Below, in pieces: positions 1,075 through 34,317 of a stretch of 41,625 nucleotides of DNA (its first letter is position 1; each line of letters opens with the position of its first letter). Both the position numbers and the translations under genes were made by a program. Where the stretch lies: IMG/VR virus record IMGVR_UViG_2529293039_000011; one strand, given 5' to 3'. Origin of the DNA: a virus (Duplodnaviria > Heunggongvirae > Uroviricota > Caudoviricetes). The notes under the pieces are model-generated. The model ran no database searches. It had not been told where the DNA came from and saw nothing but the letters and a program-made list of their open reading frames with translations.

Positions 1075-1270
1075 TTCTGATCCTCTTCAAAAGGCTACCT
1101 GTTACTGGTCGATTTAAGTCAACCTTTACCGCTGATTCGTGGAACAGATACTCTCTTCCATCCTTAACCGGAGGAGGGAATATCCTGCACTCGCGTACCC
1201 ATCGACGAACTGTTTCAAGGCTTCTTGGGCGTCGCTGGCGTGCGTTCCACTCCTGAAGTGTCAAGTACAT
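1052..1270 (-). CDS. xis: Excisionase (72 aa), 3' end overlaps int start
   Basis: Protein MYLTLQEWNARQRRPRSLETVRRWVRECRIFPPPVKDGREYLFHESAVKVDLNRP... is essentially lambda Xis; int/xis overlap as in lambda. Confidence 0.93.
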   Translation of the reverse strand: MYLTLQEWNARQRRPRSLETVRRWVRECRIFPPPVKDGREYLFHESAVKVDLNRPVTGSLLKRIRNGKKAKS

Positions 1271-1292
1271 CGCAAAGTCTCCGCAATTACAC

Positions 1293-1320
1293 GCAAGAAA
1301 AAACCGCCATCAGGCGGCTT
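1293..1320 (-). terminator. Candidate intrinsic terminator downstream of the small ORF 1310..1477
   Basis: Minus-strand reading gives GCCGCC-TGAT-GGCGG hairpin followed by TTTTTTCTT. Confidence 0.35.
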
Positions 1321-1477
1321 GGTGTTCTTTCAGTTCTTCAATTCGAATATTGGTTACGTCTGCATGTGCTATCTGTGCCCATATCATCCAGTGGTCATAG
1401 CAGTCGTTGATGTTCTCTGCTTCGATAACTCTGTTGAATGGCTCTCCATTCCATTCACCTGTGACTCGGAAGTGCAT
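1310..1477 (-). CDS. Small hypothetical protein (55 aa), not in the ORF track (below size cutoff)
   Basis: ATG preceded by GGAG Shine-Dalgarno (GGAGATGATAAATG); translates to MHFRVTGEWNGEPFNRVIEAENINDCYDHWMIWAQIAHADVTNIRIEELKEHQAA; fills the xis-ea8.5 gap on the same strand. Confidence 0.45.
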   Translation of the reverse strand: MHFRVTGEWNGEPFNRVIEAENINDCYDHWMIWAQIAHADVTNIRIEELKEHQAA

Positions 1478-1565
1478 TTATCATCTCCATAAAACAAAAC
1501 TCGCCGTAGCGAGTTCAGATAAAATAAATCCCCGCGAGTGCGAGGATTGTTATGTAATATTGGGT

Positions 1566-1847
1566 TTAATCATCTATATGTTTTGTACAGAGAGGGCAAG
1601 TATCGTTTCCACCGTACTCGTGATAATAATTTTGCACGGTATCAGTCATTTCTCGCACATTGCAGAATGGGGATTTGTCTTCATTAGACTTATAAACCTT
1701 CATGGAATATTTGTATGCCGACTCTATATCTATACCTTCATCTACATAAACACCTTCGTGATGTCTGCATGGAGACAAGACACCGGATCTGCACAACATT
1801 GATAACGCCCAATCTTTTTGCTCAGACTCTAACTCATTGATACTCAT
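1566..1847 (-). CDS. Ea8.5-like early protein (93 aa)
   Basis: Protein MSINELESEQKDWALSMLCRSGVLSPCRHHEGVYVDEGID... matches my recollection of lambda Ea8.5; Cys/His-rich. Confidence 0.8.
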   Translation of the reverse strand: MSINELESEQKDWALSMLCRSGVLSPCRHHEGVYVDEGIDIESAYKYSMKVYKSNEDKSPFCNVREMTDTVQNYYHEYGGNDTCPLCTKHIDD

Positions 1848-2714
1848 TTATAAACTCCTTGCAATGTATGTCGTTTCAGCTAAACGGTATCAGCAATGTT
1901 TATGTAAAGAAACAGTAAGATAATACTCAACCCGATGTTTGAGTACGGCCATCATCTGACACTACAGACTCTGGCATCGCTGTGAAGACGACGCGAAATT
2001 CAGCATTTTCACAAGCGTTATCTTTTACAAACCCGTATTCCTGCTCATATCACTCTCCTTTGATGCGAATGCCAGCGGCGCGGATAGATTTCCATTGTTC
2101 CCATATGCGGTTGAAGTCTGTTCCTGATAAGGTCGCGTTACGGTATCCAGTTTCGGTGCGCAATCCTTCAAGCGTCGATTTGGAAATACAAATTGAATGC
2201 ATTACCCATGATTCGAACAAATCACGCTCCCGGGCTTCGCAACTTTGCTTACTCATCTCTTCGATACGTTCAGCCATCGCAGCACACTCTTCAAAGTTAC
2301 TTAATGCTTTTCGCTCCCATTCGGCGCATTGTTTTCCAAGCTCTGCAATCAGCTTGTCTTTGCCTTCCAGCTCAACTCGCAGCTTCCCTACCGTTAGCGC
2401 AATATCCTCGTTCTCCTGATCACGGCTTTTGATGTATTGCTGGTTTCTTTCCCGTTCATCCAGCAGCGCCAGCACGGTAGCTGGACTGGCTGCGGCGATG
2501 AATTCAGCATTGGCCTGCTGTTCCATTTGGAAATCTTCATCGAAACCGCTTTCAGGATGCGCTCCTTCAATTCTGCAAATGGGAATATATCCAGCAGCCT
2601 CGCGATGAATTAGCGCATCATCACAATCAAATCGGCTCTCTCCATATTCGAGCGACCATACACCACACGTTGCTTTTTCTGCCTTGGCACGCAGTGCCTC
2701 ATAGTCAATCTTGC

Positions 2715-5233
<2,519 letters not shown>

Positions 5234-5255
<22 letters not shown>

Positions 5256-5416
5256 ATCGCATTCAGATATTTGTTTTGATTCACTGACGGAGAAGAATTT
5301 CTCTTAAGCAATTCCTCTCTCGATGGCATTGGCTTTACGCGTTGGCGAATAATCATTTCTGCCGGAAGAATGCCGGGATTGTATGCAAGTCCTCTCATGG
5401 TAAATTCCTCAGTCAT
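5234..5416 (-). CDS. Possible small protein (60 aa), start overlapping the stop of the upstream gene
   Basis: ATG inside AATGACTGA overlap with preceding stop; fills the gap between 5409..5705 and 5255; no clear Shine-Dalgarno. Confidence 0.25.
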
Positions 5417-5705
5417 TACTGATAGCGCCATAGCGTGAGCGGTAATTACGCAGGCGCGGGTCGATATATTCAGGGAAGTGGGTATATGTGGCTTTGCGGA
5501 ATGGTCGGATTGATGTCTGGTAAATTCGCTCGCGTTCTTCTTTCTCTGCAAGCCATATACAGTGGCGAAATTCCTTTTCCTCTTTCGTTTCCTGCGGTAG
5601 AGACATTATTCGATCGTAGTTTTTTCTGAATTTATCCAGCACCTCCGATACGGAATTGCCGGAACAGCGGCGCGGGTCATCCGCACCATACAGAGGCGCT
5701 GGCAT
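5409..5705 (-). CDS. Hypothetical early protein (98 aa)
   Basis: Clean ORF directly downstream of ssb on the same strand, charged composition; no family recognised. Confidence 0.5.
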
Positions 5706-5718
5706 GATTTTCTCCTGA

Positions 5719-6225
5719 TTAAATTGCGTGAATAGCGTGACGAGGGAAGGGGAGAGTTACTGGTGCAAAGGGTATATCGTCGTCAAAATCCATCGGAGGT
5801 TCGTTGTGTTGTGCTGGTGATGATTGCTGCTGTGGCTTCTGTGATTGCCTGCTGGCTGCTTGTTGTTTGCTGTCGCCAATGCCGCCAAGCATTTGCATCA
5901 CGCCATTAATTCCGACATGAACCTCGGTTGTGTAACGGTCTTGCCCTGACTGGTCTTTCCACTTTCTGGTTCTCAGCATTCCCTCGAAATAAATCTGATC
6001 ACCTTTTTTCACATACTGCCCCACGACCTCAGCCAGTTTCCCGGATACAGCAACACGATGCCATTCAGTCAATTCCTTTTGCTCGCCAGTATTTTTATCT
6101 CGCCATTGTTCTGACGTGGCTATTGTCAGGTTAGCGAACGCTGTTCCTGATGGTGAGTATCGAACTTCCGGGTCTTGTCCTACCCGACCAAGGATAATCA
6201 CCTTATTTACGCCTCTGCTTGCCAT
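5719..6225 (-). CDS. ssb: Single-stranded DNA-binding protein (168 aa) with unusual 15-aa extension after the DDDIPF tip
   Basis: OB-fold N-terminus [44 protein letters not shown]..., Gln/Pro-rich linker and [11 protein letters not shown] motif; ORF continues [15 protein letters not shown]. Confidence 0.9.
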
Positions 6226-6933
6226 TTATGCTGCCTGTTTTAGTTCGTTAACTCTGATGTTCATTACCTGAACACATTTAGCCTGCGCCTCCTCGTTGCC
6301 AGCCATTAATTGCCAGTCACGCTGATAACGCTCGATGAGTTTTTTCTTGTCAGTTTCTGTCGCTGCATAATCGCTGAAGTCTTTCAGGATTTGTTCGCAG
6401 TCAACCGATGGAGATTTCTGGTTGGTATTTTCTGGTGATGGTTTGTTATCTGATGCTGGGATTGCCCATCCCGGCAGTGATGGAGGTAGCCAGTAAAATC
6501 CTGTTCCATCCTTCAGTTTTGCCCTGTGCCACCCCTGCTTTTTATCGAGAGATGTTTGTGCGAAACCTTCCTCAAGGTTATACAGATACCGACCGATTCC
6601 CCACTGAACGGCAGCGCGCTTCATTGCACCGGAACGACCGCCTTTGACAGCTTCTACCTGCGTGTTTTCAGCAGCATCCCATTTGGTTACCCATTCGGAA
6701 TCAATCCTGATTGATATGCCGCATTCAACGCCGCCGTTGTTGGGAATATCGCGGTATTCATTGCGCCATCCTGCTTTGCCGCAAACATCGTCCAGACGTT
6801 TCATGATTGCCCGGTTCGTGACATAAGCCAGCACCATAGCCCACACCTTGCCATCGCGTGTTTTACCGCTTTGCTGTATTCGCCATTCGATATCTTCAGG
6901 GCTGAATGGCTCATCGAATTTGTTCAAATCCAT
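6226..6933 (-). CDS. Rad52/Rad22-family single-strand annealing protein (235 aa)
   Basis: Conserved blocks KVWAMVLAYVTNRAIMKRLDDVCGKAGW and MKRAAVQWGIGRYLY typical of phage Rad52-like annealases; occupies the exo/bet slot. Confidence 0.75.
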   Translation of the reverse strand: MDLNKFDEPFSPEDIEWRIQQSGKTRDGKVWAMVLAYVTNRAIMKRLDDVCGKAGWRNEYRDIPNNGGVECGISIRIDSEWVTKWDAAENTQVEAVKGGRSGAMKRAAVQWGIGRYLYNLEEGFAQTSLDKKQGWHRAKLKDGTGFYWLPPSLPGWAIPASDNKPSPENTNQKSPSVDCEQILKDFSDYAATETDKKKLIERYQRDWQLMAGNEEAQAKCVQVMNIRVNELKQAA

Positions 6934-7032
6934 AATTCACCTCAGAATGGACACGGCCCAAGGAAATAACGCTGATTTAATACTTCGACTCGGGACAAAT
7001 TAAGGCATACCCGCATTCCTTCGCGGTCGCCA

Positions 7033-7191
7033 TTATGGCGATACCAGAGAGCTTTCTGCGTGTACATGCGTCTCTGTAACTTGCTCTCCTTTACTGTGGT
7101 TGCAAGTGACATGAATATCTCCTTCGTTACCGATTAATTCTTTCATCTGACGAATGAATTCTTCGTCTGAGCAGTTATCTGTAAAACTCAT
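7033..7191 (-). CDS. Small hypothetical protein (52 aa) in the gam position, coupled to kil
   Basis: ATG overlaps kil stop (ATGA); translates MSFTDNCSDEEFIRQMKELIGNEGDIHVTCNHSKGEQVTETHVHAESSLVSP; an alternative overlapping 56-aa frame 6943..7112 with a GGAG site also exists. Confidence 0.35.
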   Translation of the reverse strand: MSFTDNCSDEEFIRQMKELIGNEGDIHVTCNHSKGEQVTETHVHAESSLVSP

Positions 7192-7339
7192 TTCCTGCGA
7201 TACCACGGAAGGTTGATAGCTGATTTCATCGCTTTATTTGCTTCAAGCCACATTTTGGAATCACCAATAAATCTGGCTATTACTGCTTTGTTCTGTGCAG
7301 CACGAAGCATCTGGTGATTGATGGCTATTTCATTGCGCA
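7188..7339 (-). CDS. kil: Kil-like host-killing protein (50 aa)
   Basis: Translates MRNEIAINHQMLRAAQNKAVIARFIGDSKMWLEANKAMKSAINLPWYRRK; the IARFIGDSKMWLEA block resembles lambda Kil IATFIGDEKMFREA; below track size cutoff. Confidence 0.55.
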
Positions 7340-7459
7340 TAACGCCTCCAGTTGTTTCTTTGCTGCTCTGATTAATTGTTTAACTCGGCGTGATAATTCA
7401 GATTCGTGCGGGTAGAAAGCGGACATGACGCCGCTACCCGCGAGCTGAAAGTGCATCAT
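7325..7459 (-). CDS. cIII: cIII-like protein (about 45 aa); the track ORF 7325..7534 extends further upstream
   Basis: Start chosen at ATGATG preceded by AAGGAG; MMHFQLAGSGVMSAFYPHESELSRRVKQLIRAAKK resembles lambda cIII in its AG..GV...ESxL..R pattern. Confidence 0.55.
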   Translation of the reverse strand: MMHFQLAGSGVMSAFYPHESELSRRVKQLIRAAKKQLEALCAMK

Positions 7460-7534
7460 GGGTAACTCCTTATATTTGATTGCATAACGAAAACGCCTCG
7501 AGTGAAGCGTTATTGGTATGCGGTAAAGCCGCAC

Positions 7535-7903
7535 TCAGGCGGCCTTGATAGTCATATCATCTGAATCAAATATTCCTGATGTATCGATATCGGTAATTCT
7601 TATTCCTTCACTACCATCCATTGGAGGCCATCCTTCCTGACCATTTCCATCATCCCAGTCGAACTCACAAACAACACCATATGCATTTAAGTCTTTCGAA
7701 ATTGCTATAAGCAGAGCATGTTGCGCCAGCATGATTAATACAGCATTTAATACAGAGCCGTGTTTATTGAGTCGGTATTCAGAGTCTGACCAGAAATTAT
7801 TAATCTGGTGAAGTTTTTCCTCTGTCATTACGTCATGGTCGATTTCAATTTCTATTGATGCTTTCCAGTCGTAATCAATGATGTATTTTTTGATGTTTGA
7901 CAT
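7535..7903 (-). CDS. Ea10-like early protein (122 aa)
   Basis: Protein MSNIKKYIIDYDWKASIEIEIDHDVMTEEKLHQINNFWSDSEYRLNKHGSVLNAVL... matches my recollection of lambda Ea10. Confidence 0.85.
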   Translation of the reverse strand: MSNIKKYIIDYDWKASIEIEIDHDVMTEEKLHQINNFWSDSEYRLNKHGSVLNAVLIMLAQHALLIAISKDLNAYGVVCEFDWDDGNGQEGWPPMDGSEGIRITDIDTSGIFDSDDMTIKAA

Positions 7904-7921
7904 CTATTCATATCCTCATAG

Positions 7922-7950
7922 ATAAAAAATCGCCCTCACATTAGAGGGCA
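7922..7950 (-). terminator. Candidate intrinsic terminator downstream of the 156-aa gene in the pL operon
   Basis: Minus-strand hairpin GCCCTC-TAATGT-GAGGGC followed by GATTTTTTATC. Confidence 0.4.
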
Positions 7951-8053
7951 AAGAAGATTTCCAATAATCAGAACAAGTCGGCTCCTGTTTAGTTACGAGC
8001 GACATTGCTCCGTGTATTCACTCGTTGGAATGAATACACAGTGCTTATTCGTA

Positions 8054-8524
8054 CTAATAAAACACCCAATTTTCTGTTTCTTGGTTGTGTCCAAAGTTAT
8101 ATTCAATATCTGGTGTTGATGTATCAATATTCTTCATCCCATCAACAAGAGTTGATACAACAGCCAAATCTTGTTTGATTCTCATCAAATGGTATTTCTT
8201 TCGGCGCAATAAACTTTCAATGGCAAGTTTCTTCGTCGGGAATGCAAAAGATCTTTCTGCATTTTTTGCTACTTTCTTAATTGCATATCTATTTCTCCTT
8301 TGTTTCCATTCCTGTAACCACTGATTTGGTGCTGGTTTAAAATTAACAATCCAATGCGCAGGAACCAACCATGCATAATGCTCTGTCTGATGAAAAGCTA
8401 TATATTGAAGTGCGAATATTTTGATCCCATCTTCTTCAACTGTCGCCTGGAATCTCCAGAAAACAGGCATTCCATCATGTTCAGTTTCTGATTCAGGAAA
8501 AGGTACGCTCCATGATTTTGTCAT
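8054..8524 (-). CDS. Hypothetical protein (156 aa) in the ral/sieB slot between N and ea10
   Basis: Clean ORF with GAGGTG site upstream of the ATG; soluble, basic, Trp-rich; no family recognised. Confidence 0.6.
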   Translation of the reverse strand: MTKSWSVPFPESETEHDGMPVFWRFQATVEEDGIKIFALQYIAFHQTEHYAWLVPAHWIVNFKPAPNQWLQEWKQRRNRYAIKKVAKNAERSFAFPTKKLAIESLLRRKKYHLMRIKQDLAVVSTLVDGMKNIDTSTPDIEYNFGHNQETENWVFY

Positions 8525-8582
8525 ATCTCACCTCAAATAAGTGGTTTGCTGCCTAATTTCATTTTCTGGCGACCAACACAAG

Positions 8583-8855
8583 TCATCTTGCTGTCAGTTG
8601 TTTGGATTTCCGGTAGCCTGCCGCGTAAAGAGCTACGTTCGGAAGACAAGTTGAGCCTTCATATTTTCTGGTCAACGTTGTCAGTGTTATTACTTCTGCT
8701 CTCATTGCTGGTTTGCGCTTGCATTGCAAGACCACTCGAGAGGGGGTTGGTCTGTGTAGCTTGTCGGAGCTAATCGCCTCCTGACTTTGCAGGTTTGCGC
8801 GACGAGCTCTACGACGAGAAGCTGAGGTGCCTTTAAATTCTGTTTTTCTGGACAT
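8583..8855 (-). CDS. N: N-like transcription antitermination protein (about 90 aa); the track ORF extends upstream to 8939
   Basis: Start chosen at ATG preceded by GGGAGG; N-terminal arginine-rich motif MSRKTEFKGTSASRRRARRANLQ typical of N proteins; position downstream of nutL and pL. Confidence 0.65.
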   Translation of the reverse strand: MSRKTEFKGTSASRRRARRANLQSQEAISSDKLHRPTPSRVVLQCKRKPAMRAEVITLTTLTRKYEGSTCLPNVALYAAGYRKSKQLTAR

Positions 8856-8953
8856 AGATTCCTCCCGAATAAACTTTGGTGATGCAATCTCGAAGCTCCT
8901 CCTGAGACGGTTGCTTCGGCATTGCATCCCACAGCTCATGTGGTTGGGTGATC

Positions 8954-9000
8954 TGGCTTTTCAGCCACGTAGTCGAGAGTTCGACGTTGTTTAAAGAGCC
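8954..9000 (-). promoter_or_regulatory. nutL: boxA-like GGCTCTTTAAACAACG and boxB hairpin TGGC-TGAAAA-GCCA on the leftward transcript
   Basis: Near-duplicate of nutR at 11211..11256, with a compensatory base-pair swap in the boxB stem. Confidence 0.5.
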
Positions 9001-9029
9001 TGCCAGTCTGTTCCGTTTGGCTTCCAGCG

Positions 9030-9200
9030 TCCTGCTGACGGTTAAATAGTACGATATGTACTTTATTGGGTTAATACTATTTGTTCTAAAATAGGGTGAT
9101 TTTTTATAACACTTTGTATTTAATAGTGTTGTTTTTTAGCGTGGGTGTATCGCCTCGGCGATGTAAGGAGAGATCAGAATTGCGTGGTTTAGTGAGTTGT
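9030..9200 (-). promoter_or_regulatory. OL/pL region; palindrome AGTACGATATGTACT at 9048..9062 as candidate cI operator
   Basis: Palindrome shares the TACATAT/GTAC core with the OR candidate near 10948; lies between the immunity terminator and nutL; AT-rich. Confidence 0.35.
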
Positions 9201-9202
9201 AT

Positions 9203-10135
9203 CTATTTATTTTTCAATAAATACATTTGGTTATGTGTCTTTAGGTGGGGGCGTGAGGCAAAGAAAACCCGGCGCTGAGGCCGGGGTATGCATTTATGGT
9301 TTTTTTGGTCGTGCTTTGCTAGGGCTTTATGAGTTTTCTTAATGCTGCTTCTAACTTTCTGAATTTTTTCTTGGGAAAGTTTTATGTTTTCAGGGGCTGT
9401 TCCAGTGTTAGAAATCATTACATTGCGAACAGATCTCCCTACGGTCTCAGCAGCATTCTCTAGTTGAGACTGTCCCTTCAGGTTCTGGTTTCTGATTCTT
9501 GCTTCTGTCTGTGTAATTCTGAATATATTGGCCGCGAGCTCTTCGCTTCCCATGAAGTCAAGCATCGTTCCATCTTTTTTAGTTAGGCCTTTTCGAGCTT
9601 TCAACTGTGAGAGATTCATATTGTACATCCCACGGTAGCCCGCATTTTGAAATAGACCATAGTCGACTACTCCGTGTTTATGGGCTACATGACTGAGAGT
9701 TTTCTCTCTAGATGTAATCTCGCCACGCAAATAAACTCGATTAACTGCGTCATGGTTATGATATGTAGTGTGTATTTCTGCTGCGAGCCCAGCAAAATAA
9801 GCTTGTGCATTTGCAACTTTTTGATTGCTGATGTCACCATTCATTACAATCAGATAACAAGCGAAACGAGTTAATTTAAAGTCATTTTTCGCATTTTCTG
9901 AAGGCATCTGGATGAAGTTATCGTATACAGGGATATCGAGGCTCACACATACAGATGTAGCTTTGTTAATGGCTTTCAATATCTGATCCATGCCATTATA
10001 TCCAAGCATCATCGCTAAATCAGATGCAAACCAATAGGTAACACCGTTTTCTCTAGCGAAATCATCAAATGTTAACTGTGATGTGTCATCGAAAACAGTA
10101 ATTTGCCTACTCATATCACACCCGAACTTACTCAT
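9203..10135 (-). CDS. Hypothetical protein (310 aa) in the rexAB position, with a weak Bro-N/KilA-N-like N-terminal signature
   Basis: ATG preceded by AAGGGA; motif VTYWFASDLAMMLGY resembles the Bro-N W-F-x-A-x-D-x-x-x-x-L-G-Y signature; immediately downstream of cI on the same strand. Confidence 0.6.
   Translation of the reverse strand: MSKFGCDMSRQITVFDDTSQLTFDDFARENGVTYWFASDLAMMLGYNGMDQILKAINKATSVCVSLDIPVYDNFIQMPSENAKNDFKLTRFACYLIVMNGDISNQKVANAQAYFAGLAAEIHTTYHNHDAVNRVYLRGEITSREKTLSHVAHKHGVVDYGLFQNAGYRGMYNMNLSQLKARKGLTKKDGTMLDFMGSEELAANIFRITQTEARIRNQNLKGQSQLENAAETVGRSVRNVMISNTGTAPENIKLSQEKIQKVRSSIKKTHKALAKHDQKNHKCIPRPQRRVFFASRPHLKTHNQMYLLKNK
9259..9285 (-). terminator. Candidate intrinsic terminator of the cI-side immunity transcript, embedded in the last codons of the 310-aa ORF
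   Basis: Minus-strand hairpin CCCGGC-CTCAGC-GCCGGG followed by TTTTCTTTG; T-run also on the plus side. Confidence 0.45.
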
Positions 10136-10215
10136 CGATTTTCCCTTATATTAATATAATGTGGATAGTTTGTCGCCAACTCGCTAAAGTTATTCATTAT
10201 GAGGTTTGCCATCCA

Positions 10216-10875
10216 TCACCCAAACGTCTCTTCAGGCCACTGACTAGCGATAACTTTCCCCACAACGGAACAACTCTCATTGCATGGGATCATTGGGTAT
10301 TGTGGATTTAGTGGCTGTAGAAACACCTGACCGCTATCCCTGATCAGTTTCTTGAAGGTAAATTCATCACCACCAAGTCTGGCTATGCAGAAATCGCCGG
10401 GCTCAACAGCTTGCTCTGGGTCAACCAGAATTAACATCCCGTCAGGAAAACTAGGTTTGGAACCTGTTGGGGCGGTCATTGAGTTACCTTCAACCTCAAG
10501 CCAGAATGCAGAGTCACTGGCTTTTTTGGTTGTGCTTACCAATCTCTCCGCATCGCCTTTGGTAAAGGTTCTGAGTTCTGGAGAGAACATCCCAGCCTGA
10601 ACATGAGAAAAAACAGGGTACTCATATTGTTTTTTAACTGGGGCCGATGAGTATTCGCCAACAGGTGAAAATGTCCCGTCGTGGTTGAATGATATGTTAT
10701 CAATACCAAGGTATTTAAACACCACACCAATATCACTAAGAGATGGATGACGAGATCCGCGCAACCAGTGTCCAATCCCACCCTGCGTCATACCTAGCTC
10801 TTCGGCTAACTTCTCTTGAGTTATGCCGAGCTCTTTCATTCTGGATCTAGCCAGTTCATACCATTTCATTTTCAT
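10216..10875 (-). CDS. cI: cI-type repressor with LexA-like S24 autocleavage domain (about 220 aa; the track ORF extends to 11037)
   Basis: N-terminal HTH ([28 protein letters not shown]), C-terminal S24 domain with GNSM serine and FKKL lysine; start at MKMKW by position; divergent from cro. Confidence 0.85.
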
Positions 10876-10985
10876 GTCCTTATTATTACGCTCTGTATTG
10901 CAACCATCCATGCACAATGTGTATTTTTGCTTGCATTCAAAAAGTACATATTGTATTTTTTCTTCATGGTTACTATGGAGGGCAT
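10876..10985. promoter_or_regulatory. OR / pRM / pR region between cI and cro
   Basis: Candidate operators GTACATATTGTAT and CACAATGTGTA; candidate pR is TTGCAT, 17-bp spacer, TATTTT, upstream of cro. Confidence 0.45.
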
Positions 10986-11201
10986 ATGAGCAACCTACGA
11001 AAATATCGAGAGTCACTGAATATCTCTCAAACAACACTTGCTAAGGCAGTTGGATGCACACAGGGAGCTATCGGACATTGGGAATCTGGTCGTCGCTTCC
11101 CAGACCTTAAAACATGCCGTGCTCTTGTTGCGTGTCTAAACAAGTTAGGCGCAAAAGTAAGTCTTGATGACGTGTTCCCGCCGGAGCACAAAGCCGCTTA
11201 A
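10986..11201 (+). CDS. cro: Cro-like HTH repressor (71 aa; track ORF starts earlier at 10917)
   Basis: Start at ATG preceded by [36 protein letters not shown] of XRE type; divergent to cI. Confidence 0.8.
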
Positions 11202-11210
11202 TAAGCGGAG

Positions 11211-11256
11211 CCGCTCTTTGTAACAACGGACATTCGTCCTACGTCGCTGAAAAGCG
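11211..11256 (+). promoter_or_regulatory. nutR: boxA CGCTCTTTGTAACAACG and boxB hairpin TCGC-TGAAAA-GCGA
   Basis: Directly after cro stop; paralogous to nutL with a compensatory stem change. Confidence 0.5.
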
Positions 11257-11342
11257 AGCCCCAAGATATCTGACCAACTAAGGCCATATGCGTTTCCACG
11301 CATACCTTTCAACTAACTATTCACTATTGGAAATCTTAAGAA

Positions 11343-11639
11343 ATGGAACAAACAAGTTACAGCAAACTATCACAGCGTGACGTTGATCGCGCAGAAACAG
11401 ATTTACTCATCAACCTGTCAACGCTTACCCAGCGTGGTCTGGCAAAGATGATTGGCTGTCATGAATCGAAGATAAGCAGAACGGACTGGCGGTTTATTGC
11501 TTCGGTCTTGTGTGCTTTCGGAATGGCATCAGACATCAGTCCAATTAGCAGGGCTTTTAAGTATGCGCTTGATGGAATCACAAAGAAAAAACGCCCGGCG
11601 GCAACCGAGCGTTCTGAACAAATCCAGATGGAGTTCTGA
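11343..11639 (+). CDS. cII: cII transcriptional activator (98 aa)
   Basis: C-terminal KKRPAATERSEQIQMEF matches my recollection of lambda cII. Confidence 0.88.
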   Translation: MEQTSYSKLSQRDVDRAETDLLINLSTLTQRGLAKMIGCHESKISRTDWRFIASVLCAFGMASDISPISRAFKYALDGITKKKRPAATERSEQIQMEF

Positions 11640-11671
11640 GGTCATTACTGGATCTATCAACAGGAGTCATT

Positions 11672-12570
11672 ATGACAAATACAGCAAAAATACTCAACTT
11701 CGGCAGAGGTAACTTTGCCGGACAGGAGCGTAATGTGGCAGATCTCGATGATGGTTACGCCAGACTATCAAATATGCTGCTTGAGGCTTATTCAGGCGCA
11801 GATCTGACCAAGCGACAGTTTAAAGTGCTGCTTGCCATTCTGCGTAAAACCTATGGGTGGAATAAACCAATGGACAGAATCACCGATTCTCAACTTAGCG
11901 AGATTACAAAGTTACCCGTCAAACGGTGCAATGAAGCCAAGTTAGAACTCGTCAGAATGAATATTATCAAGCAGCAAGGCGGCATGTTTGGACCAAATAA
12001 AAACATCTCAGAATGGTGTATCCCTCAAAACGAGGGAAAATCCCCTAAAACGAGGGATAAAACATCCCTCAAATTGGGGGATTGCTATCCCTCAAAACAG
12101 GGGGACACAAAAGACACTATTACAAAAGAAAAAGAAAAGATTATTCGTCCGAGAATTCTGGCGAATCCTCTGACCAGCCAGAAAACGATCTTTCTGTGGT
12201 TAAACCGGATGCTGCAATTCAGAGCGGCAGCAAGTGGGGAACAGCAGAAGACCTGACCGCCGCAGAGTGGATGTTTGACATGGTGAAGACCATCGCGCCA
12301 TCAGCCAGAAAACCGAATTTTGCTGGGTGGGCTAACGATATCCGCCTGATGCGTGAACGTGACGGACGTAACCACCGCGATATGTGTGTGCTTTTCCGCT
12401 GGGCCTGCCAGGACAACTTCTGGTCCGGTAACGTGCTGAGTCCGGCCAAACTCCGCGACAAGTGGACCCAGCTCGAAATCAACCGTAACAAGCAACAGGC
12501 AGGCGTGACAGCCAGCAAACCAAAACTCGACCTGACAAACACTGACTGGATTTACGGGGTGGATTTATGA
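11672..12570 (+). pseudogene. O: Replication initiator O, interrupted by a 1-nt frameshift inside the origin (track ORFs 11672..12256 and 12082..12570)
   Basis: N-terminal frame MTNTAKILNFGRGNFAGQERNVADLDDGYARL... is lambda O; C-terminal frame ...GVDL ends by overlapping the P start; the span is 899 nt, not a multiple of 3. Confidence 0.75.
12021..12106 (+). repeat. Lambda-type replication origin: four iterons of about 18 bp, followed by an AT-rich tract
   Basis: Tandem repeats TCCCTCAAAACGAGGGAA, TCCCCTAAAACGAGGGAT, ATCCCTCAAATTGGGGGA, ATCCCTCAAAACAGGGGGA. Confidence 0.8.
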
Positions 12571-13268
12571 AAAACATCGCCGCACAGATGGTTAACTTTG
12601 ACCGTGAGCAGATGCGTCGGATCGCCAACAACATGCCGGAACAGTACGACGAAAAGCCGCAGGTACAACAGGTAGCGCAGATCATCAACGGTGTGTTCAG
12701 CCAGTTACTGGCAACTTTCCCGGCGAGCCTGGCTAACCGTGACCAGAACGAACTGAACGAAATCCGCCGCCAGTGGGTTCTGGCTTTCCGGGAAAACGGG
12801 ATCACCACAATGGAACAGGTTAACGCAGGAATGCGCGTAGCCCGTCGGCAGAATCGACCATTTCTGCCATCACCCGGGCAGTTTGTTGCATGGTGCCGGG
12901 AAGAAGCATCCGTTATCGCCGGACTGCCAAACGTCAGCGAGCTGGTTGATATGGTTTACGAGTATTGCCGGAAGCGAGGCCTGTATCCGGATGCGGAGTC
13001 TTATCCGTGGAAATCAAACGCGCACTACTGGCTGGTTACCAACCTGTATCAGAACATGCGGGCCAATGCGCTTACTGATGCGGAATTACGCCGTAAGGCC
13101 GCAGATGAGCTTGTCCATATGACTGCGAGAATTAACCGTGGTGAGTCGATCCCTGAACCAGTAAAACAACTTCCTGTCATGGGCGGTAGACCTCTAAATC
13201 GTGCACAGGCTCTGGCGAAGATCGCAGAACTCAAAGCTAAGTTCGGACTGAAAGGAGCAAGTGTATGA
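12567..13268 (+). CDS. P: Replication protein P (DnaB helicase loader, 233 aa)
   Basis: Protein MKNIAAQMVNFDREQMRRIANNMPEQYDEKPQVQQ... matches my recollection of lambda P; ATGA overlap with O. Confidence 0.9.
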   Translation: MKNIAAQMVNFDREQMRRIANNMPEQYDEKPQVQQVAQIINGVFSQLLATFPASLANRDQNELNEIRRQWVLAFRENGITTMEQVNAGMRVARRQNRPFLPSPGQFVAWCREEASVIAGLPNVSELVDMVYEYCRKRGLYPDAESYPWKSNAHYWLVTNLYQNMRANALTDAELRRKAADELVHMTARINRGESIPEPVKQLPVMGGRPLNRAQALAKIAELKAKFGLKGASV

Positions 13269-13555
13269 CGGGCAAAGAGGCAATTATTCATTACCTGGGG
13301 ACGCATAATAGCTTCTGTGCGCCGGACGTTGCCGCGCTAACAGGCGCAACAGTAACCAGCATAAATCAGGCCGCGGCTAAAATGGCACGGGCAGGTCTTC
13401 TGGTTATCGAAGGTAAGGTCTGGCGAACGGTGTATTACCGGTTTGCTACCAAGGAAGAACGGGAAGGAAAGATGAGCACGAACCTAATTTTTAAGGAGTG
13501 TCGCCAGAGTGCCGCGATGAAACGGGTATTGGCGGTATATGGAGTTAAAAGATGA
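13265..13555 (+). CDS. ren: Ren protein (96 aa)
   Basis: Protein MTGKEAIIHYLGTHNSFCAPDVAALTGATV... matches my recollection of lambda Ren; overlaps P stop. Confidence 0.85.
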   Translation: MTGKEAIIHYLGTHNSFCAPDVAALTGATVTSINQAAAKMARAGLLVIEGKVWRTVYYRFATKEEREGKMSTNLIFKECRQSAAMKRVLAVYGVKR

Positions 13556-13580
13556 CCATCTACATCACTGAGCTAATAAC

Positions 13581-13613
13581 AGGCCTGCTGGTAATCGCAG
13601 GCCTTTTTATTTG
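13581..13613 (+). terminator. Intrinsic terminator after ren (tR2 position)
   Basis: Hairpin AGGCCTGC-TGGTAATC-GCAGGCCT followed by TTTTTATTT. Confidence 0.6.
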
Positions 13614-13627
13614 GGGGAGAGTAAATC

Positions 13628-13954
13628 GTGGCTGACTGGCAAATACCAATCATCATTCTTGCCGGAGCTTCGCTGGTTGCTGGCTTTATCCTGCTGAAGA
13701 AGCATAAAGACCGTGATCAAAAAGTCGAAGTTCTCTATGGGTATCCGGCGAACAGCACAACATGGCTGACTATTTACCACTACCGAAAATCAGGCCGTTG
13801 GGTATTCGAATGGGATGATCTGTTTGCTGAAAAGCGACCAAAGTCATGGGGAGACATCAGCGAATGCATGATGTTTGAAGAAAGAAAATCCGGCGCAACC
13901 CGAGAAGAGTTTAACGAAGCGTGGAGGCGATTAAGTGAGAGGGGGTATCAATGA
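13628..13954 (+). CDS. Hypothetical membrane-anchored protein (108 aa), GTG start
   Basis: GTG preceded by GGGGGAGAG; N-terminal hydrophobic segment IPIIILAGASLVAGFILL followed by a charged soluble domain. Confidence 0.55.
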   Translation: MADWQIPIIILAGASLVAGFILLKKHKDRDQKVEVLYGYPANSTTWLTIYHYRKSGRWVFEWDDLFAEKRPKSWGDISECMMFEERKSGATREEFNEAWRRLSERGYQ

Positions 13955-13976
13955 GCAGAATTAAGTCGAGGTAACA

Positions 13977-14423
13977 ATGAAGCAAATATACATGCTTCGC
14001 AACGAAGCAATCAGAAACAACGCCATAGACGCAATACTCTCACTTCCGATCGACGACAAGTCACCTCACGAAGTCCACATTAAAGAACCCAGGCGGAGCA
14101 ATCCTCAAAACCGCCTTATGTGGGCGTTATTGCAGGACGTATCACGTCAGGTGCTTTGGCATGGAAAGAGACTTGCGCCGGAGGACTGGAAAGATCTGTT
14201 CACTGCCCTGTGGCTTAAGACCAAAAAACTGGAGCAACGAAGTGCGCCTGGTATCGACGGTGGCGTTGTCATGCTTGGCGTGCGTACCAGCAAAATGCGA
14301 AAGGCCAGCATGACTGAGCTTATCGAAATCATGTTCTGGTTCGGCTCAGAGCGCAACGTGCGGTGGAGTGATGACTCCCGGCGAGAGTATGAATGGTCAC
14401 AACGAAAAGGTAGGGCTGCATGA
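13977..14423 (+). CDS. ninB: NinB (Orf family recombination protein, 148 aa)
   Basis: Conserved NinB blocks NPQNRLMWALLQDVSRQVLWHGKRL and RNVRWSDDSRREYEW, as recalled from lambda NinB. Confidence 0.85.
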   Translation: MKQIYMLRNEAIRNNAIDAILSLPIDDKSPHEVHIKEPRRSNPQNRLMWALLQDVSRQVLWHGKRLAPEDWKDLFTALWLKTKKLEQRSAPGIDGGVVMLGVRTSKMRKASMTELIEIMFWFGSERNVRWSDDSRREYEWSQRKGRAA

Positions 14424-14947
14424 CTATCAAATCAAATACGCCAGCACACGACAAGGACTGCTGGCAAACGCCGCTTTGGCTTTTTGATGCACTGGATATT
14501 GAGTTTGGATTCTGGCTGGATTCGGCAGCGAGCGACAAAAATGCTCTGTGCGCTCACTGGCTAACTGAGGCTGACGACGCGCTAAATTCTGAGTGGGTAA
14601 GCCACGGTGCAATCTGGAATAACCCACCGTACAGCAATATCAGGCCGTGGGTGGAAAAAGCCGCTGAGCAGTGTATACAACAACGACAGACGGTAGTGAT
14701 GCTTGTGCCAGAGGATATGTCAGTCGGATGGTTCAGCAAGGCTCTGGAGAGTGTCGACGAAGTTCGTATTATCACTGATGGACGGATTAATTTTGTCGAA
14801 CCATCGACAGGACTGGAGAAGAAGGGAAACAGCAAAGGTTCCATGCTGCTGATTTGGCGACCGTTCATCAGTTCTCGACGGATGTTTACTACTGTATCCA
14901 AAGCGGCATTGATGGCGATCGGGCAGGGCGTCAGGAGGGCAGCATGA
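14420..14947 (+). CDS. Phage DNA N6-adenine methyltransferase (175 aa)
   Basis: Catalytic NPPY motif (IWNNPPYS) and N-terminal DCWQTP block typical of the phage Dam-like family. Confidence 0.85.
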
Positions 14948-15126
14948 GACGACAGCGACGAAGTTTCACCGACATCATCTGCGAAAACTGCAAATACCTT
15001 CCAACGAAACGCTACAGAAATAAACGCAAGCCAATCCCAAAAGAATCTGACGTAAAAACCTTCAACTACACGGCTCACCTGTGGGATATCCGGTGGCTAA
15101 GACATTGTGCGAGGAAAACAAGGTGA
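14944..15126 (+). CDS. ninE: NinE (60 aa; track ORF 14854..15126 starts earlier)
   Basis: [52 protein letters not shown] matches my recollection of lambda NinE; start overlaps methylase stop. Confidence 0.7.
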
Positions 15127-15293
15127 TTGACCAAAATCGAAGTTACGAACAAGAAAGCGTCGAGCGAGCTTTAACGTGCGCTAACTGCGGTCAGAAGCTG
15201 CATGTGCTGGAAGTTCACGTGTGTGAGCACTGTTGCGCAGAACTTATGAGCGATCCGAATAGCTCAATGTACGAGGAAGAAGACGATGAATGA
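15123..15293 (+). CDS. ninF: NinF-like protein (about 57 aa, GTG start; track ORF begins at 15081)
   Basis: [48 protein letters not shown] matches my recollection of lambda NinF; Cys-rich. Confidence 0.6.
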
Positions 15294-16008
15294 GTTAATA
15301 AATGGCAATGCCATAAAAATGACAAGCATTGAAATCGCTGAGTTGGTTGGTAAGCGTCATGACAATGTGAAACGTACCATCGAAACGCTGGCTAAAAATG
15401 GTGTTATCCGGCTTCCTCAAATTGAGGATTGTGGAAGAATCAATGGGTTAGGCTTAAATCAAAGTTTTTGTGTGTATGTATTCGAAGGCGAACAAGGAAA
15501 GCGAGACAGTATTGTCGTTGTAGCCCAGTTGTCGCCGGAATTCACGGCTCGCCTTGTTGACCGTTGGCGAGAGCTTGAAGAAGCTGCGGTTAATATCCCA
15601 AAAACGCTACCAGAAGCGTTGCGCCTTGCTGCTGACCTTGCTGAGCAGAAAATGCAACTGGAAAACCAGCTAGCAATTGCCGCACCTAAAGTTGAGTTTG
15701 CCGATCGCGTTGGCGAGGCCAGCGGAATTTTGATTGGAAACTTTGCAAAGGTTGTTGGAATTGGTCCAAACAAACTGTTTGCGTGGATGCGCGATCACAA
15801 AATCCTTATTGCTTCAGGTTCCCGGCGCAATGTGCCAATGCAGGAATATATGGATCGCGGCTATTTCACAGTGAAAGAAACAGCGGTCAACACAAATCAC
15901 GGAATACAGATATCGTTCACCACAAAAATCACCGGGTGTGGTCAACAGTGGCTGACCAGAAAGCTGCTCGATAACGGAATGCTGAAAGTAACAGGGGAGG
16001 CTGCTTAA
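15286..16008 (+). CDS. Rha/KilAC-family phage antirepressor-like protein (240 aa)
   Basis: N-terminal Rha-like block (TSIEIAELVGKRHDNVKRTIETL) and C-terminal KilAC-like region. Confidence 0.7.
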   Translation: MNELINGNAIKMTSIEIAELVGKRHDNVKRTIETLAKNGVIRLPQIEDCGRINGLGLNQSFCVYVFEGEQGKRDSIVVVAQLSPEFTARLVDRWRELEEAAVNIPKTLPEALRLAADLAEQKMQLENQLAIAAPKVEFADRVGEASGILIGNFAKVVGIGPNKLFAWMRDHKILIASGSRRNVPMQEYMDRGYFTVKETAVNTNHGIQISFTTKITGCGQQWLTRKLLDNGMLKVTGEAA

Positions 16009-16298
16009 TGGCTAACCTACGCAAAGAAGCTCGCGGCAGAGAATGCCAGGTACGTATTTACGGCGTATGCAATGGCAACCCTGAAACTACAGTTCTGGCA
16101 CATTACCGGATGGCTGGAATTTGCGGAACGGGAATGAAGCCTGACGACCTGATCGGCGCATGGGCTTGTAGCGCGTGTCACGATGAAATCGACCGACGCA
16201 CCCATAACCTCGACAACAAAGACGCCAGACTTTACCACCTCGAAGGCGTGATCAGGACGCAGGCGATACTGCTGAAGGAGGGGAAGATTAAGCCATGA
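16008..16298 (+). CDS. ybcO: YbcO-like protein (DUF1364, 96 aa)
   Basis: Cys/His cluster (CQVR..CNGNPETTVLAHYR..CSACHDEIDRRTH) matches my recollection of DLP12 YbcO. Confidence 0.7.
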   Translation: MANLRKEARGRECQVRIYGVCNGNPETTVLAHYRMAGICGTGMKPDDLIGAWACSACHDEIDRRTHNLDNKDARLYHLEGVIRTQAILLKEGKIKP

Positions 16299-16657
16299 AC
16301 GAATATCAGTTTGTGCTTCCATACCCGCCGTCGGTGAATACCTACTGGCGAAGACGGGGAGGCCAATACTACATCAGCGATAAAGGCCAGAAATACCGAA
16401 AAGACGTTCAGCAAATCATTCGCCAACTCAAGTTAGACATTTTCACCAAATCACGACTCCGTATCAAAGTCATCGCAGACGTTCCAGACTCCCGCCGCCG
16501 CGACCTCGACAACATCCTGAAAGGTTTACTCGACTCCCTTATCCACGCCGGATTTGCGGAAGACGACGAGCAATTCGATGACATTCGCGTAATTCGTGGT
16601 GTGAAAGTACCAGGCGGAAGGCTTGGAATAAAAATCACCGAACTGGAGAACACATGA
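16295..16657 (+). CDS. rusA: RusA Holliday-junction resolvase (120 aa)
   Basis: Protein MNEYQFVLPYPPSVNTYWRRRGGQYYISDKGQKYRKDVQ... with the RusA acidic catalytic region. Confidence 0.9.
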   Translation: MNEYQFVLPYPPSVNTYWRRRGGQYYISDKGQKYRKDVQQIIRQLKLDIFTKSRLRIKVIADVPDSRRRDLDNILKGLLDSLIHAGFAEDDEQFDDIRVIRGVKVPGGRLGIKITELENT

Positions 16658-16788
16658 ACAAAGCATTCGAACGATATATGCGCCAGCGTTATGGCAATCG
16701 CTACGATCTTACCCGCGATGCTTACGGCTTCTACTGTCGTGAGGTTGTGAAACGAATGTTTGAAGTGTGGTGTCATTGCAAAGGATAG
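16654..16788 (+). CDS. Small protein (44 aa) coupled to rusA, possibly YlcG-like
   Basis: ATG overlaps rusA stop (ATGA); translates MNKAFERYMRQRYGNRYDLTRDAYGFYCREVVKRMFEVWCHCKG; below track cutoff. Confidence 0.4.
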   Translation: MNKAFERYMRQRYGNRYDLTRDAYGFYCREVVKRMFEVWCHCKG

Positions 16789-16799
16789 AGGGGAAGACG

Positions 16800-17423
16800 A
16801 TGAGACTCGAAAGCGTAGCTAAATTTCATTCGCCAAAAAGCCCGATGATGAGCGACTCACCACGGGCCACGGCTTCTGACTCTCTTTCCGGTACTGATGT
16901 GATGGCTGCTATGGGGATGGCGCAATCACAAGCCGGATTCGGAATGGCTGCATTCTGCGGTAAGCACGAACTCAGCCAGAACGACAAACAAAAGGCTATC
17001 AACTATCTGATGCAATTTGCACACAAGGTATCGGGGAAATACCGTGGCGTGGCAAAGCTTGAAGGAAATACTAAGGCAAAGGTACTGCAAGTGCTCGCAA
17101 CATTCGCTTATGCGGATTATTGCCGTAGTGCCGCGACGCCGGGCGCAAGATGCAGAGATTGCCACGGTACAGGCCGTGCGGTTGATATAGCCAAAACAGA
17201 GCAGTGGGGGATAGTTGCTGAGAAAGAGTGCGGAAGATGTAAAGGCGTCGGTTATTCAAGAATGCCAGCAAGCGCCGCATATCGCGCTGTGACGATGCTA
17301 ATCCCAAACCTTACCCAACCCACCTGGTCACGCACTGTTAAGCCGCTGTATGACGCTCTGGTTGTGCAATGCCACAAGGAAGAGTCAATCGCAGACAACA
17401 TTTTGAATGCGATCACACGTTAG
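16800..17423 (+). CDS. Q: Late-gene antiterminator Q, lambda type (207 aa; track ORF begins at 16767)
   Basis: MRLESVAKFHSPKSPMMSDSPRATASDSLSGTDVMAAMGMAQSQ... matches my recollection of lambda Q, including the zinc-binding CRDCHGTG...CGRCKG. Confidence 0.92.
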   Translation: MRLESVAKFHSPKSPMMSDSPRATASDSLSGTDVMAAMGMAQSQAGFGMAAFCGKHELSQNDKQKAINYLMQFAHKVSGKYRGVAKLEGNTKAKVLQVLATFAYADYCRSAATPGARCRDCHGTGRAVDIAKTEQWGIVAEKECGRCKGVGYSRMPASAAYRAVTMLIPNLTQPTWSRTVKPLYDALVVQCHKEESIADNILNAITR

Positions 17424-17465
17424 CGCCATGATTGCCACGGATGGCAACATATTAACGGCATAATA

Positions 17466-17500
17466 TTGACTTTTTGAATAACTTTGGGGAAACTTGACAC
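17466..17500 (+). promoter_or_regulatory. Late promoter pR' with overlapping qut region
   Basis: TTGACT, 17-bp spacer (TTTTGAATAACTTTGGG), GAAACT, in the same position and layout as I recall for lambda pR'. Confidence 0.5.
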
Positions 17501-17660
17501 CAATAATGGGCGTTTTTTACATGTCATTGATGAGTCTCAATAACCTGCCGCCGAGTAGTTTTTATGCTCTGAATTGTATTTGTGTAGTAAACATGCTGAC
17601 TGCAATGTAATAGAGTTTTTTTAGCCTGTAACCTCTTGACGGCATTGAATTGCTTTTGTT

Positions 17661-18419
17661 ATGAGTTGTAAGCCAATGTTATCATCTTGTATTGGGGTGG
17701 TTATGAAGGATGGTGCACTGCTCAGGAGTTCTTCACTTTTTATTGCCTACATGGGATGCCTTGGATGGGGGAGTGCTTATTTCTATGGATGGGGTACTTC
17801 TTTTTACTACGGCTTCCCATGGTGGATTGTAGGTGCAGGTGTTGATGATGTTGCCAGAAGTTTATTTTTTGCAGTTATCGTCATTGCTATATTTCTTATC
17901 GGTTGGGGTATTGGTGTTGTATTCTTTTTCGCAGTGAAAAGAAAACATTCTATGCAAGAGCTAAATGTATTTCGCCTTTATTTTGCTGTGGAATTATTGT
18001 TTGTGCCGGCAATTATTGAGTTTTCTATATTGAGACAGAAGATTCAGGTACCTCTTTTGCTACTGTCAGCAGCGATTGCGCTGGCGGTTACAATTTCGAT
18101 AAGATCTTATGGGCGATTTTTATCGGTATCATGCTTCTATGATAAGCCATTTATAAAAAAACATTTTTTTGAGATTGTGATGATTGCTTTTGTGGCATAT
18201 TTCTGGTTTTTTTCATTTCTGACAGGATATTACAAACCGCAGTTTAAGAAAGAATATGAAATGATTAATTATAATGATGGTTGGTATTATGTTCTTGCTC
18301 GTTATGATAATTGTCTGGTTTTGTCTACTTCTTTCAATGCAGGTAGTAAAAGGTTTGTCATTTATCAATCAGCACAAGATAAGAATCTTCAGGTTGATAT
18401 TGTAAGGACCAGAATTTAA
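17661..18419 (+). CDS. Polytopic membrane protein of unknown function (252 aa from 17661; about 238 aa if started at 17703)
   Basis: Several hydrophobic helices plus a roughly 60-aa C-terminal soluble tail; candidate promoter TTGACG, 17 bp, TTATGA upstream; GGGGTGG site before the internal ATG; visibly AT-rich. Confidence 0.6.
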   Translation: MSCKPMLSSCIGVVMKDGALLRSSSLFIAYMGCLGWGSAYFYGWGTSFYYGFPWWIVGAGVDDVARSLFFAVIVIAIFLIGWGIGVVFFFAVKRKHSMQELNVFRLYFAVELLFVPAIIEFSILRQKIQVPLLLLSAAIALAVTISIRSYGRFLSVSCFYDKPFIKKHFFEIVMIAFVAYFWFFSFLTGYYKPQFKKEYEMINYNDGWYYVLARYDNCLVLSTSFNAGSKRFVIYQSAQDKNLQVDIVRTRI

Positions 18420-18849
18420 TTGGCTGCATAAATAATATTTTAAGTTGCAAGTTGGCTATTCGTAGGAATAGAACCTTAGGCATGCTGAATGCGTTTTCTG
18501 AACATTGTTTTATAAACTGTGTCTGCTTGCTGTTGTGATCCTGCTTTTAGTGATGGTGATGATGGATTTCACCAGCAGGATAATGTTGGTACTGACTGAT
18601 GGCGCTCTGGTCTGCGGCATTGTGGTATTGCTGTGGCCGATGATGAAAAAACAGAATGAATAATCCTTGACTTTTTTGTTTACTGTTTATTAAAAAATCA
18701 ACCGCATGGTGAATCCTCCTTGGAGGGGCTAAATGATCGAGTTTTAAGGGCACGTAGCGAGTTCTGTTTGATCATTGCAGAACTTAGCGGGAGGCGCCAT
18801 GCGTACATCACTAATGTTATTTCCTTCTATCATTTTCCTTGTGAGTTCT

Positions 18850-18876
18850 GGCTGCGCATGGCGCGGCCTTTTTTTT
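18850..18876 (+). terminator. Intrinsic terminator downstream of the membrane-protein moron
   Basis: Hairpin GGCTGCGC-ATG-GCGCGGCC followed by TTTTTTTT. Confidence 0.5.
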
Positions 18877-19284
18877 ATGACCTGCCACTGGCAGATGGTC
18901 ATCCTGTGATTTGATTCCGGTTCCGGCTTTTTAACTCTGTTCCTGTACACGGGAGAAATTCTATGTCGATTAATCGTTATGATATTGGTTACAAGAAGTA
19001 CCACGTATTGTGTTGAGATAGAAAGCATGGTGCCAGAGGTAAATGCAGCAGCATAATAAAAAAGAGCCAGCGCAGAAGAGAACGGGTAAAAGAGTCTGCG
19101 CTGGCGTGGGGATATTCCCCGTGGAGAAATGATATGTAACACACATCGGGAACCTTTCTATATAAACATTATCATTATTGTCAATCATAACAGTCAGGTA
19201 TTATGACGTTTATGCATCAGGGCCATCAGGAATTAACTGGTGGCTTTTTATTGTTGTCAGCTTCCGGATAACGGGAGACGGGGT

Positions 19285-19500
19285 ATGTACCAGATGGAAA
19301 AAATAACAACAGGTGTGTCATACACCACGTCAGCGGTGGGGACGGGATACTGGCTACTGCAGTTGCTGGACAAAGTCTCCCCATCCCAGTGGGTGGCAAT
19401 AGGCGTATTGGGTAGCCTGGTGTTTGGCTTGCTGACGTATCTGACAAACCTTTATTTCAAGATTAAAGAAGATAAGCGTAAGGCTGCGAGAGGTGAATAA
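19285..19500 (+). CDS. S: Class II pinholin, phage 21 S-type (71 aa, dual-start MYQM; track ORF begins at 19240)
   Basis: [66 protein letters not shown] matches my recollection of S21/EssD-type holins; GGGAGACGGGG site upstream. Confidence 0.85.
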
Positions 19501-30952: not shown

Positions 30953-31290
30953 CGCGGGAAATGCAGTTTGTCATGCGGCTTGCCCGGGAGTTCCGGCGGG
31001 CAGACTGGCGGCGGATGCTGTCGGAAATGTCGGCCACTGAGCTTGGTGAGTGGGGCGATTATTTCCGGATGCAGAGCTTCAGTGATGTGTGGATGGATGC
31101 GCAGTTTGCCTCGCTGAAGGCATTGATCGTGAGAATGGTGTCCGGCAGCAGTGATGCTGCGGTGGCTGATTTCAGCCTTTTACCGGAAGAGAACGGGATA
31201 CCGGAGCGAACGGACGAAGAACTGATGCATCTTGGGGAAGGTATTTCCGGAGGTGTGCGTTATGGACCAGATAGCCAACCTGGTCATTGA
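30928..31290 (+). CDS. T: T-frame segment, probably expressed as a G-T fusion by -1 ribosomal frameshift near the end of G
   Basis: The -1 frame is open from 30928 through the G stop and continues to 31290; candidate slip site CCGGAAAAG at 30938..30946. Confidence 0.55.
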   Translation, partial: GADAGKVLTREMQFVMRLAREFRRADWRRMLSEMSATELGEWGDYFRMQSFSDVWMDAQFASLKALIVRMVSGSSDAAVADFSLLPEENGIPERTDEELMHLGEGISGGVRYGPDSQPGH

Positions 31291-34200: not shown

Positions 34201-34317
34201 GGGCAGATAGGTCCGGCTGCCCTGAAGGCGGTTTATGACCTCGGGAAAAAAGCGGCAGCGGACTTTATGCAACAGCAGGCCCGTGATGGTGGTCGGTTAA
34301 GTGGAGCATATCGGTAA
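31262..34317 (+). pseudogene. H: Tail tape-measure protein H, interrupted by a 1-nt frameshift at an A7 run (track ORFs 31232..32941 and 32863..34317)
   Basis: N-terminus MDQIANLVIDLGIDAAEF and C-terminus INNDGTNGQIGPAALKAVYD... parallel my recollection of lambda gpH; the span is 3056 nt, not a multiple of 3. Confidence 0.8.

Follow-up and report, generated by a model that had tools for sequence, protein, structure and literature searches.

The replication gene O of this prophage is recorded in two pieces, which raises the question of whether the prophage has lost the ability to start its own replication or whether a base is missing from the record alone. The window, by which we mean the whole stretch of 41,625 nt that was analysed, belongs to draft contig AIFC01000014.1, whose source is a DEC2-clone strain of the DEC collection; this contig (GCA_000249215.2) is 100% identical to window positions 1672..22256. 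As recorded, the frameshifted O gene, encoding a lambda-type replication initiator, occupies 11672..12570 on the plus strand. A first-pass annotation had noted that its N- and C-terminal parts lie in different frames and that its start-to-stop span of 899 nt implies the loss of a single base. Both observations hold.

The N-terminal ORF (11672..12256, plus strand) encodes 194 residues, of which 154 are native and the last 40 are out of frame. The ORF that carries the C-terminal part (12082..12570; 162 aa) is in the −1 frame relative to it (12082 − 11672 = 410), and within this second frame the native coding sequence, residues 155–299 and the stop codon, picks up again at 12133 and continues to 12570 on the plus strand. 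An alignment to the 900-nt O genes of enteropathogenic Escherichia coli (EPEC) E2348/69 and phage 21 revealed a single 1-nt gap, AAAAAA having become AAAAA; the reference context is ACAAAAG-AAAAAA-GAAAAG, and the shortened run (A5) lies at 12129..12133 on the plus strand, where all intact relatives have six A residues (A6). Relative to the O gene of the E2348/69 prophage, this missing A is the sole difference across the gene. A continuous frame of ~299 codons is thus absent as recorded and present if one A is restored, in which case O is identical to the E2348/69 allele WP_000185505.1. Set against ~1300 A6-bearing complete E. coli genomes, A5 is one specific indel and not a chance pattern. The Pfam family PF04492 (Phage_rep_O) matches O residues 22–115 with full profile coverage (E = 1.8e-36); the C-terminal part (12133..12570) has no Pfam match of its own.

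The surroundings of the indel are those of a lambda-type replication module. Four origin iterons, the O-binding sites (12020..12106, with copies at 12020, 12040, 12064 and 12087), correspond to the annotated gpO-binding sites in phage 21, and to their right lies a high-A/T origin region of 38 bp (12107..12144) that contains the indel. The lambda origin has four iterons and an adjoining 39-bp high-AT region (PMC6022878), and the same arrangement, four iterons within O followed by a high-A/T region, is found here. The frame switch had been assigned to the A-rich tract of the origin beyond the four iterons, and this assignment stands; the tract itself, ACAAAAGAAAAAGAAAAG, is at 12122..12139, not at about 12110..12127 as had been given. 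As also reported before, the end of O overlaps the start of P: the two share ATGA at 12567..12570, with ATG at 12567..12569 and TGA at 12568..12570. Gene P (12567..13268, plus strand), directly downstream of O, encodes a helicase loader of 233 aa, for which Pfam PF06992 is recorded. The order of the early-right operon in the window (cII, O, P, ren and the nin genes) is lambda-type.

Set beside the modules of lambda and phage 21, the window O matches its counterparts at 99.7% (phage 21) and 99.9% (E2348/69 prophage) identity; its four iterons and A/T-rich tract occupy the places given for them within O in the phage 21 annotation, and the module further shares the PF04492 N-terminal domain, the O/P overlap and the ren and nin genes that follow. 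It differs in that O lacks one A of A6 and is split into two frames as recorded. As a separate observation on P, read set SRR067926 and contig AIFA01000032.1, which represent one DEC2-type strain, carry a 19-nt tandem duplication at the equivalent of window 12973/12974 that splits P into products of 176 aa and 70 aa.

The nearest complete relative of the prophage is the torS-adjacent prophage of E2348/69. Closer matches, with no substitutions relative to the window, were found in three other assemblies of the same prophage, all of which have A6. One of these, UFZD01000005.1, was found through an IS-truncated 139-aa ORF that marks this particular prophage; it is a 5.12-Mb contig with the same IS100 insertion, and it matches window 1..15235 without a substitution and with two differences, both of them 1-nt homopolymer shortfalls in the window (the A-run in O, and T8 against T7 at 9300..9306). 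Its O is called at 299 aa. The second, AIEW01000011.1, is a sister draft from the same accession series, in which 5,834 nt match and the A-run is the sole difference. The third, IMG/VR contig L151, matches over ~5 kb with three homopolymer-length differences, two being short in L151, inside cI, which they would break, and one being short in the window. The longer run is thus present in independent assemblies with nothing else different over 5.8 kb (AIEW01000011.1) and, apart from the T-run, over 15.2 kb (UFZD01000005.1). Such complete absence of substitutions over 5.8 to 15.2 kb speaks against a real deletion in the DEC2 lineage.

Among complete genomes, A5 is rare, a base rate that favours an artefact. 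The tract was found in 2,844 RefSeq complete E. coli genomes, of which five have the exact A5 context; the other close matches have A6, and the 899-nt O gene was not found in any complete E. coli genome. Two of the five A5 genomes were inspected; in both, PGAP labels O as 'frameshifted', and in one (ATCC 43888) the prophage is a clearly degraded remnant.

Among draft assemblies, the distribution of A5 follows the batch. An exact look-up of the 194-aa product in the assembly collection returned seven contigs only; its carriers are the NCBI drafts AIFB, AIFC and AIFD and Logan re-assemblies of SRR067926, SRR070451 and SRR094171, all of the Logan matches having early accessions (SRR067926 to SRR094171). 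GenBank lists the truncated 194-aa product under E. coli DEC2C and DEC2D. Beyond this prophage, A5 is present in seven IMG/VR contigs with unrelated phage backgrounds, different O alleles and four or five iterons, three of which could be traced by exact-protein look-ups to DEC10B, DEC13C/E and EPECa14; the 44-aa out-of-frame tail, used as a protein query, returned two cluster representatives only, one of them identified as DEC13E. In a Logan contig of SRR070451, which comes from a further phage, the O allele is phage-21-like and again has A5, and some A5-bearing O genes hold additional frameshifts. Wherever an A5 strain could be named, its genome is an early-accession draft from the DEC collection or of EPEC. 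Among the IMG/VR contigs listed, A5 occurs in 7 of 21 with genome IDs in the range 2526–2537 and in 0 of 106 outside it (Fisher's exact test, p = 1.3e-6, for a range picked post hoc; the other 14 contigs listed within it have A6, and A6 contigs number at least 120, of which the 120 listed entered the test). The same site is therefore affected in unrelated templates of one batch, in seven contexts, and is unaffected elsewhere among these contigs.

The sister drafts also differ from each other in ways that are typical of homopolymer noise. AFJB and AIFD have private A7-to-A6 changes and further 1-nt indels in the tape-measure gene, and in istA of the IS100 element, a run that is A6 in the window is A5 in AIFD. 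Loci L042 and L164 differ in T6/T7, A6/A7 and A5/A6 runs and in one 23-nt indel of an iteron copy, with no substitutions. Somewhat against an artefact, the AIFC contig itself shows few flaws beyond this, its homopolymer anomalies numbering only three over 41 kb, and one of the three is the T7 run in a BRO-family gene described below.

A further assembly, ALNX01000111.1 (L171), has A5 at the equivalent of window 12129 and also an extra A 50 nt further on, in a CAGAAAACG run (window 12182); with both changes O again has 299 codons, 17 residues of its linker being out of frame. Several more homopolymer indels are present in this assembly, including in cI. Although the two changes in O resemble a compensatory pair, they are probably two errors.

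Taken together, the data favour an artefact because A6 is present in other assemblies of the same prophage, because the assemblies of the batch differ from each other in homopolymer lengths and indels only, and because A5 recurs on unrelated templates and yet stays within one batch. We consider it probable, at roughly 0.85, that the loss of the A reflects homopolymer under-calling in an early draft assembly, not biology. The restriction of A5 to a batch points to a flow-chemistry miscall in the A4-G-A6-G-A4 tract rather than to a biological hot spot. According to this explanation, the raw reads would miscall the tract, and an early flow-chemistry (454-type) assembly would under-call A6 as A5. 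The O gene in the bacterium would be intact and would encode a 299-codon lambda-type initiator across an A6 run, and the origin of the prophage would have the ordinary lambda/phage-21 layout, with four iterons and an A/T-rich region in O, and O translationally coupled to P.

The notion that a 454 platform produced the window's assembly draws on the pattern of errors, together with a single related genome announcement in which 454 Titanium sequencing and the Celera assembler are reported for one isolate (PMC3715677); the first author of that announcement also led a paper on the DEC draft genomes, a link made through a reference entry. The pattern resembles known 454 and Ion Torrent homopolymer errors in three respects, namely a 1-nt shortfall in a run of six or more, differences that consist of indels only, and recurrence of the same sites across the assemblies of one batch; it differs from them in that the flow-based platform of this assembly is itself inferred. 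The miscall would also have to be of a particular kind. A5 is reproducible, being present in at least four drafts of the DEC2 clone (AIFA, AIFB, AIFC and AIFD) and in ~10 Logan re-assemblies, whereas the DEC1-type draft AIEW has A6 between identical flanks. The artefact therefore requires a miscall that is systematic or specific to a run batch; random error would not suffice.

This clade-like pattern, with A5 in the AIFA, AIFB, AIFC and AIFD drafts and ~10 read sets and A6 in AIEW and UFZD, is also what a genuine mutation would produce, and the strongest competing explanation, which we nevertheless regard as unlikely, is a real 1-bp slippage deletion from A6 to A5 that became fixed in the DEC2 clone and abolished O function. 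O would then be cut down to its iteron-binding N-terminal part with 40 aberrant residues attached, the C-terminal part needed for function would be lost, and the A/T-rich origin region would be 1 bp shorter as well. The prophage could still be repressed, excised and expressed, and it would have no theta replication of its own unless another lambdoid phage supplied O. Decay elsewhere in the lineage lends this some plausibility: IS100 is inserted at 2880..4832, and the E2348/69 prophage has tape-measure and J frameshifts of its own. The 'frameshifted' label that PGAP gives to the same A5 in complete genomes, including the degraded remnant in ATCC 43888, also fits. Against these points, the same indel would have to have arisen on at least seven unrelated phage backgrounds, all in a single batch of early drafts, and on none outside it among the IMG/VR contigs listed; private homopolymer indels also abound in the sister drafts, and some of these indels would break cI, which is not expected in a viable lysogen.

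What such a deletion would do to the protein can be judged from classical lambda mutants. In lambda, O amber alleles are null whether they keep 160, 205 or even 294 N-terminal residues (PMC6022878); a real truncation after residue 154 would therefore be null too and would resemble Oam317, which keeps 160 residues (PMC6022878). The phenotype of the ambers thus counts for the reading of a real loss of function. The lambda ori mutants r95 and r96 have in-frame deletions of 12 and 15 bp in the high-AT region (PMC6022878), and these deletions, ori95 and ori96, leave an O protein that is active in trans and an origin that is defective in cis (PMC6022878). The lesion in the window is in the same high-AT origin region; in contrast to the classical ori mutations, it is a 1-bp frameshift and would destroy the protein. 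Since the O proteins of ori95 and ori96 remain active in trans, it is the frame, not the sequence, that matters in the A/T-rich region.

Much less probable again is that A5 is real and that the DEC2 prophage persists with a split O, either because the N-terminal fragment sits on the iterons as a dominant-negative blocker of the origin or because −1 slippage partially rescues the protein. Were the blocker to exist, superinfecting phages with lambda-type replication would be excluded or throttled. Slightly less credible still is a real but leaky mutation, in which low-level −1 ribosomal slippage of tRNA-Lys on the A-run (A AAA G, 12130..12134) would yield some full-length O and throttled replication. 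The −1 direction is the one needed, the P-site AAA at 12131..12133 could re-pair perfectly one base back, and the 299 codons restored by A5 plus an extra A in ALNX01000111.1 suggest that the linker could tolerate a short out-of-frame stretch. That 'compensation', however, is itself doubtful given the further homopolymer indels in that assembly; moreover, the 0 frame has no canonical X XXY YYZ heptamer, and the A5 variant is not conserved and is confined to one sequencing batch. Programmed frameshifting and transcriptional slippage were rejected on three grounds: no canonical slippery heptamer lies in frame, the A-run has just 5 nt, and the variant lacks conservation.

The first-pass annotation had set real inactivation against a homopolymer error, and the evidence favours the error; its conditional conclusion that the prophage cannot start its own replication is probably untrue of the organism. 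If A5 is an error, a functional phage is plausible, with the qualification that the tape-measure gene in the window is split too and that IS100 is inserted in the early-left region. With an under-call as the explanation, it would be wrong to count the prophage as replication-defective, and its replication module is of the ordinary lambda/phage-21 type with the E2348/69 allele. The A4-G-A6-G-A4 tract of lambda-type origins would then be a recurrent miscall site in flow-chemistry drafts, and such miscalls would create false O pseudogenes in surveys of prophage integrity. If the deletion is real, O would be null and the prophage would depend on a helper phage for replication; this would be ordinary prophage decay through slippage in an essential early gene and would matter only for predicting the inducibility of this EPEC prophage. 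The finding is ordinary under either reading. The A5 O gene is best classified as a database artefact, with a routine prophage pseudogene as the fallback, and neither is new.

Several other features of the prophage were noted. The tape-measure gene is split by a homopolymer shortfall, A7 at 32844..32850, into ORFs 31262..32941 and 32863..34317. E2348/69 and UFZD01000005.1 both have A8 there, the latter with an intact gene (1018 aa), and A7 is common to the AIFC, AFJB, AIFD and AIEY drafts; the tape-measure gene of E2348/69 has a different frameshift, lacking an A at window 33373. In a BRO-family gene (9203..10135, minus strand), the run at 9300..9306 is T7 in the window and T8 in E2348/69, UFZD and AIFD. 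T7 shifts the last codons, extending the ORF from 280 to 310 aa through an apparent terminator hairpin. It is also present in the complete genome CP164306.1 and in run SRR30896198, both recent, which weakens its interpretation as a further sequencing error; T7 may be a real polymorphism.

The IS21-family (IS100-like) element at 2880..4832, which encodes IstA (340 aa) and IstB (259 aa), interrupts an early-left gene. The insertion is absent from E2348/69 and present in the DEC1/DEC2 drafts and UFZD01000005.1, and it is a useful marker of the prophage lineage. A look-up of the integrase aimed at the chromosomal flank of AIFC returned other genomes only, the protein being too common. In UFZD01000005.1, the left half of the prophage, from int to nin, and the closest match to the right half are at 282–303 kb and 1,633–1,656 kb (L027 and L037). 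The right-half match, from capsid to J and lom, has 11 substitutions and lies 1.35 Mb from the left half in the opposite orientation, which suggests a prophage-mediated inversion in that strain or else chimeric joining of the draft contig. At 34116..34123, the window and E2348/69 have G8, and five other loci (AFJB, AIFD, AIEY and two Logan contigs) have GGGGGGTG. Finally, an 8-bp insertion relative to E2348/69 (GGCTGTCA) is present at 21570..21577, between the Rha-family and small terminase genes.
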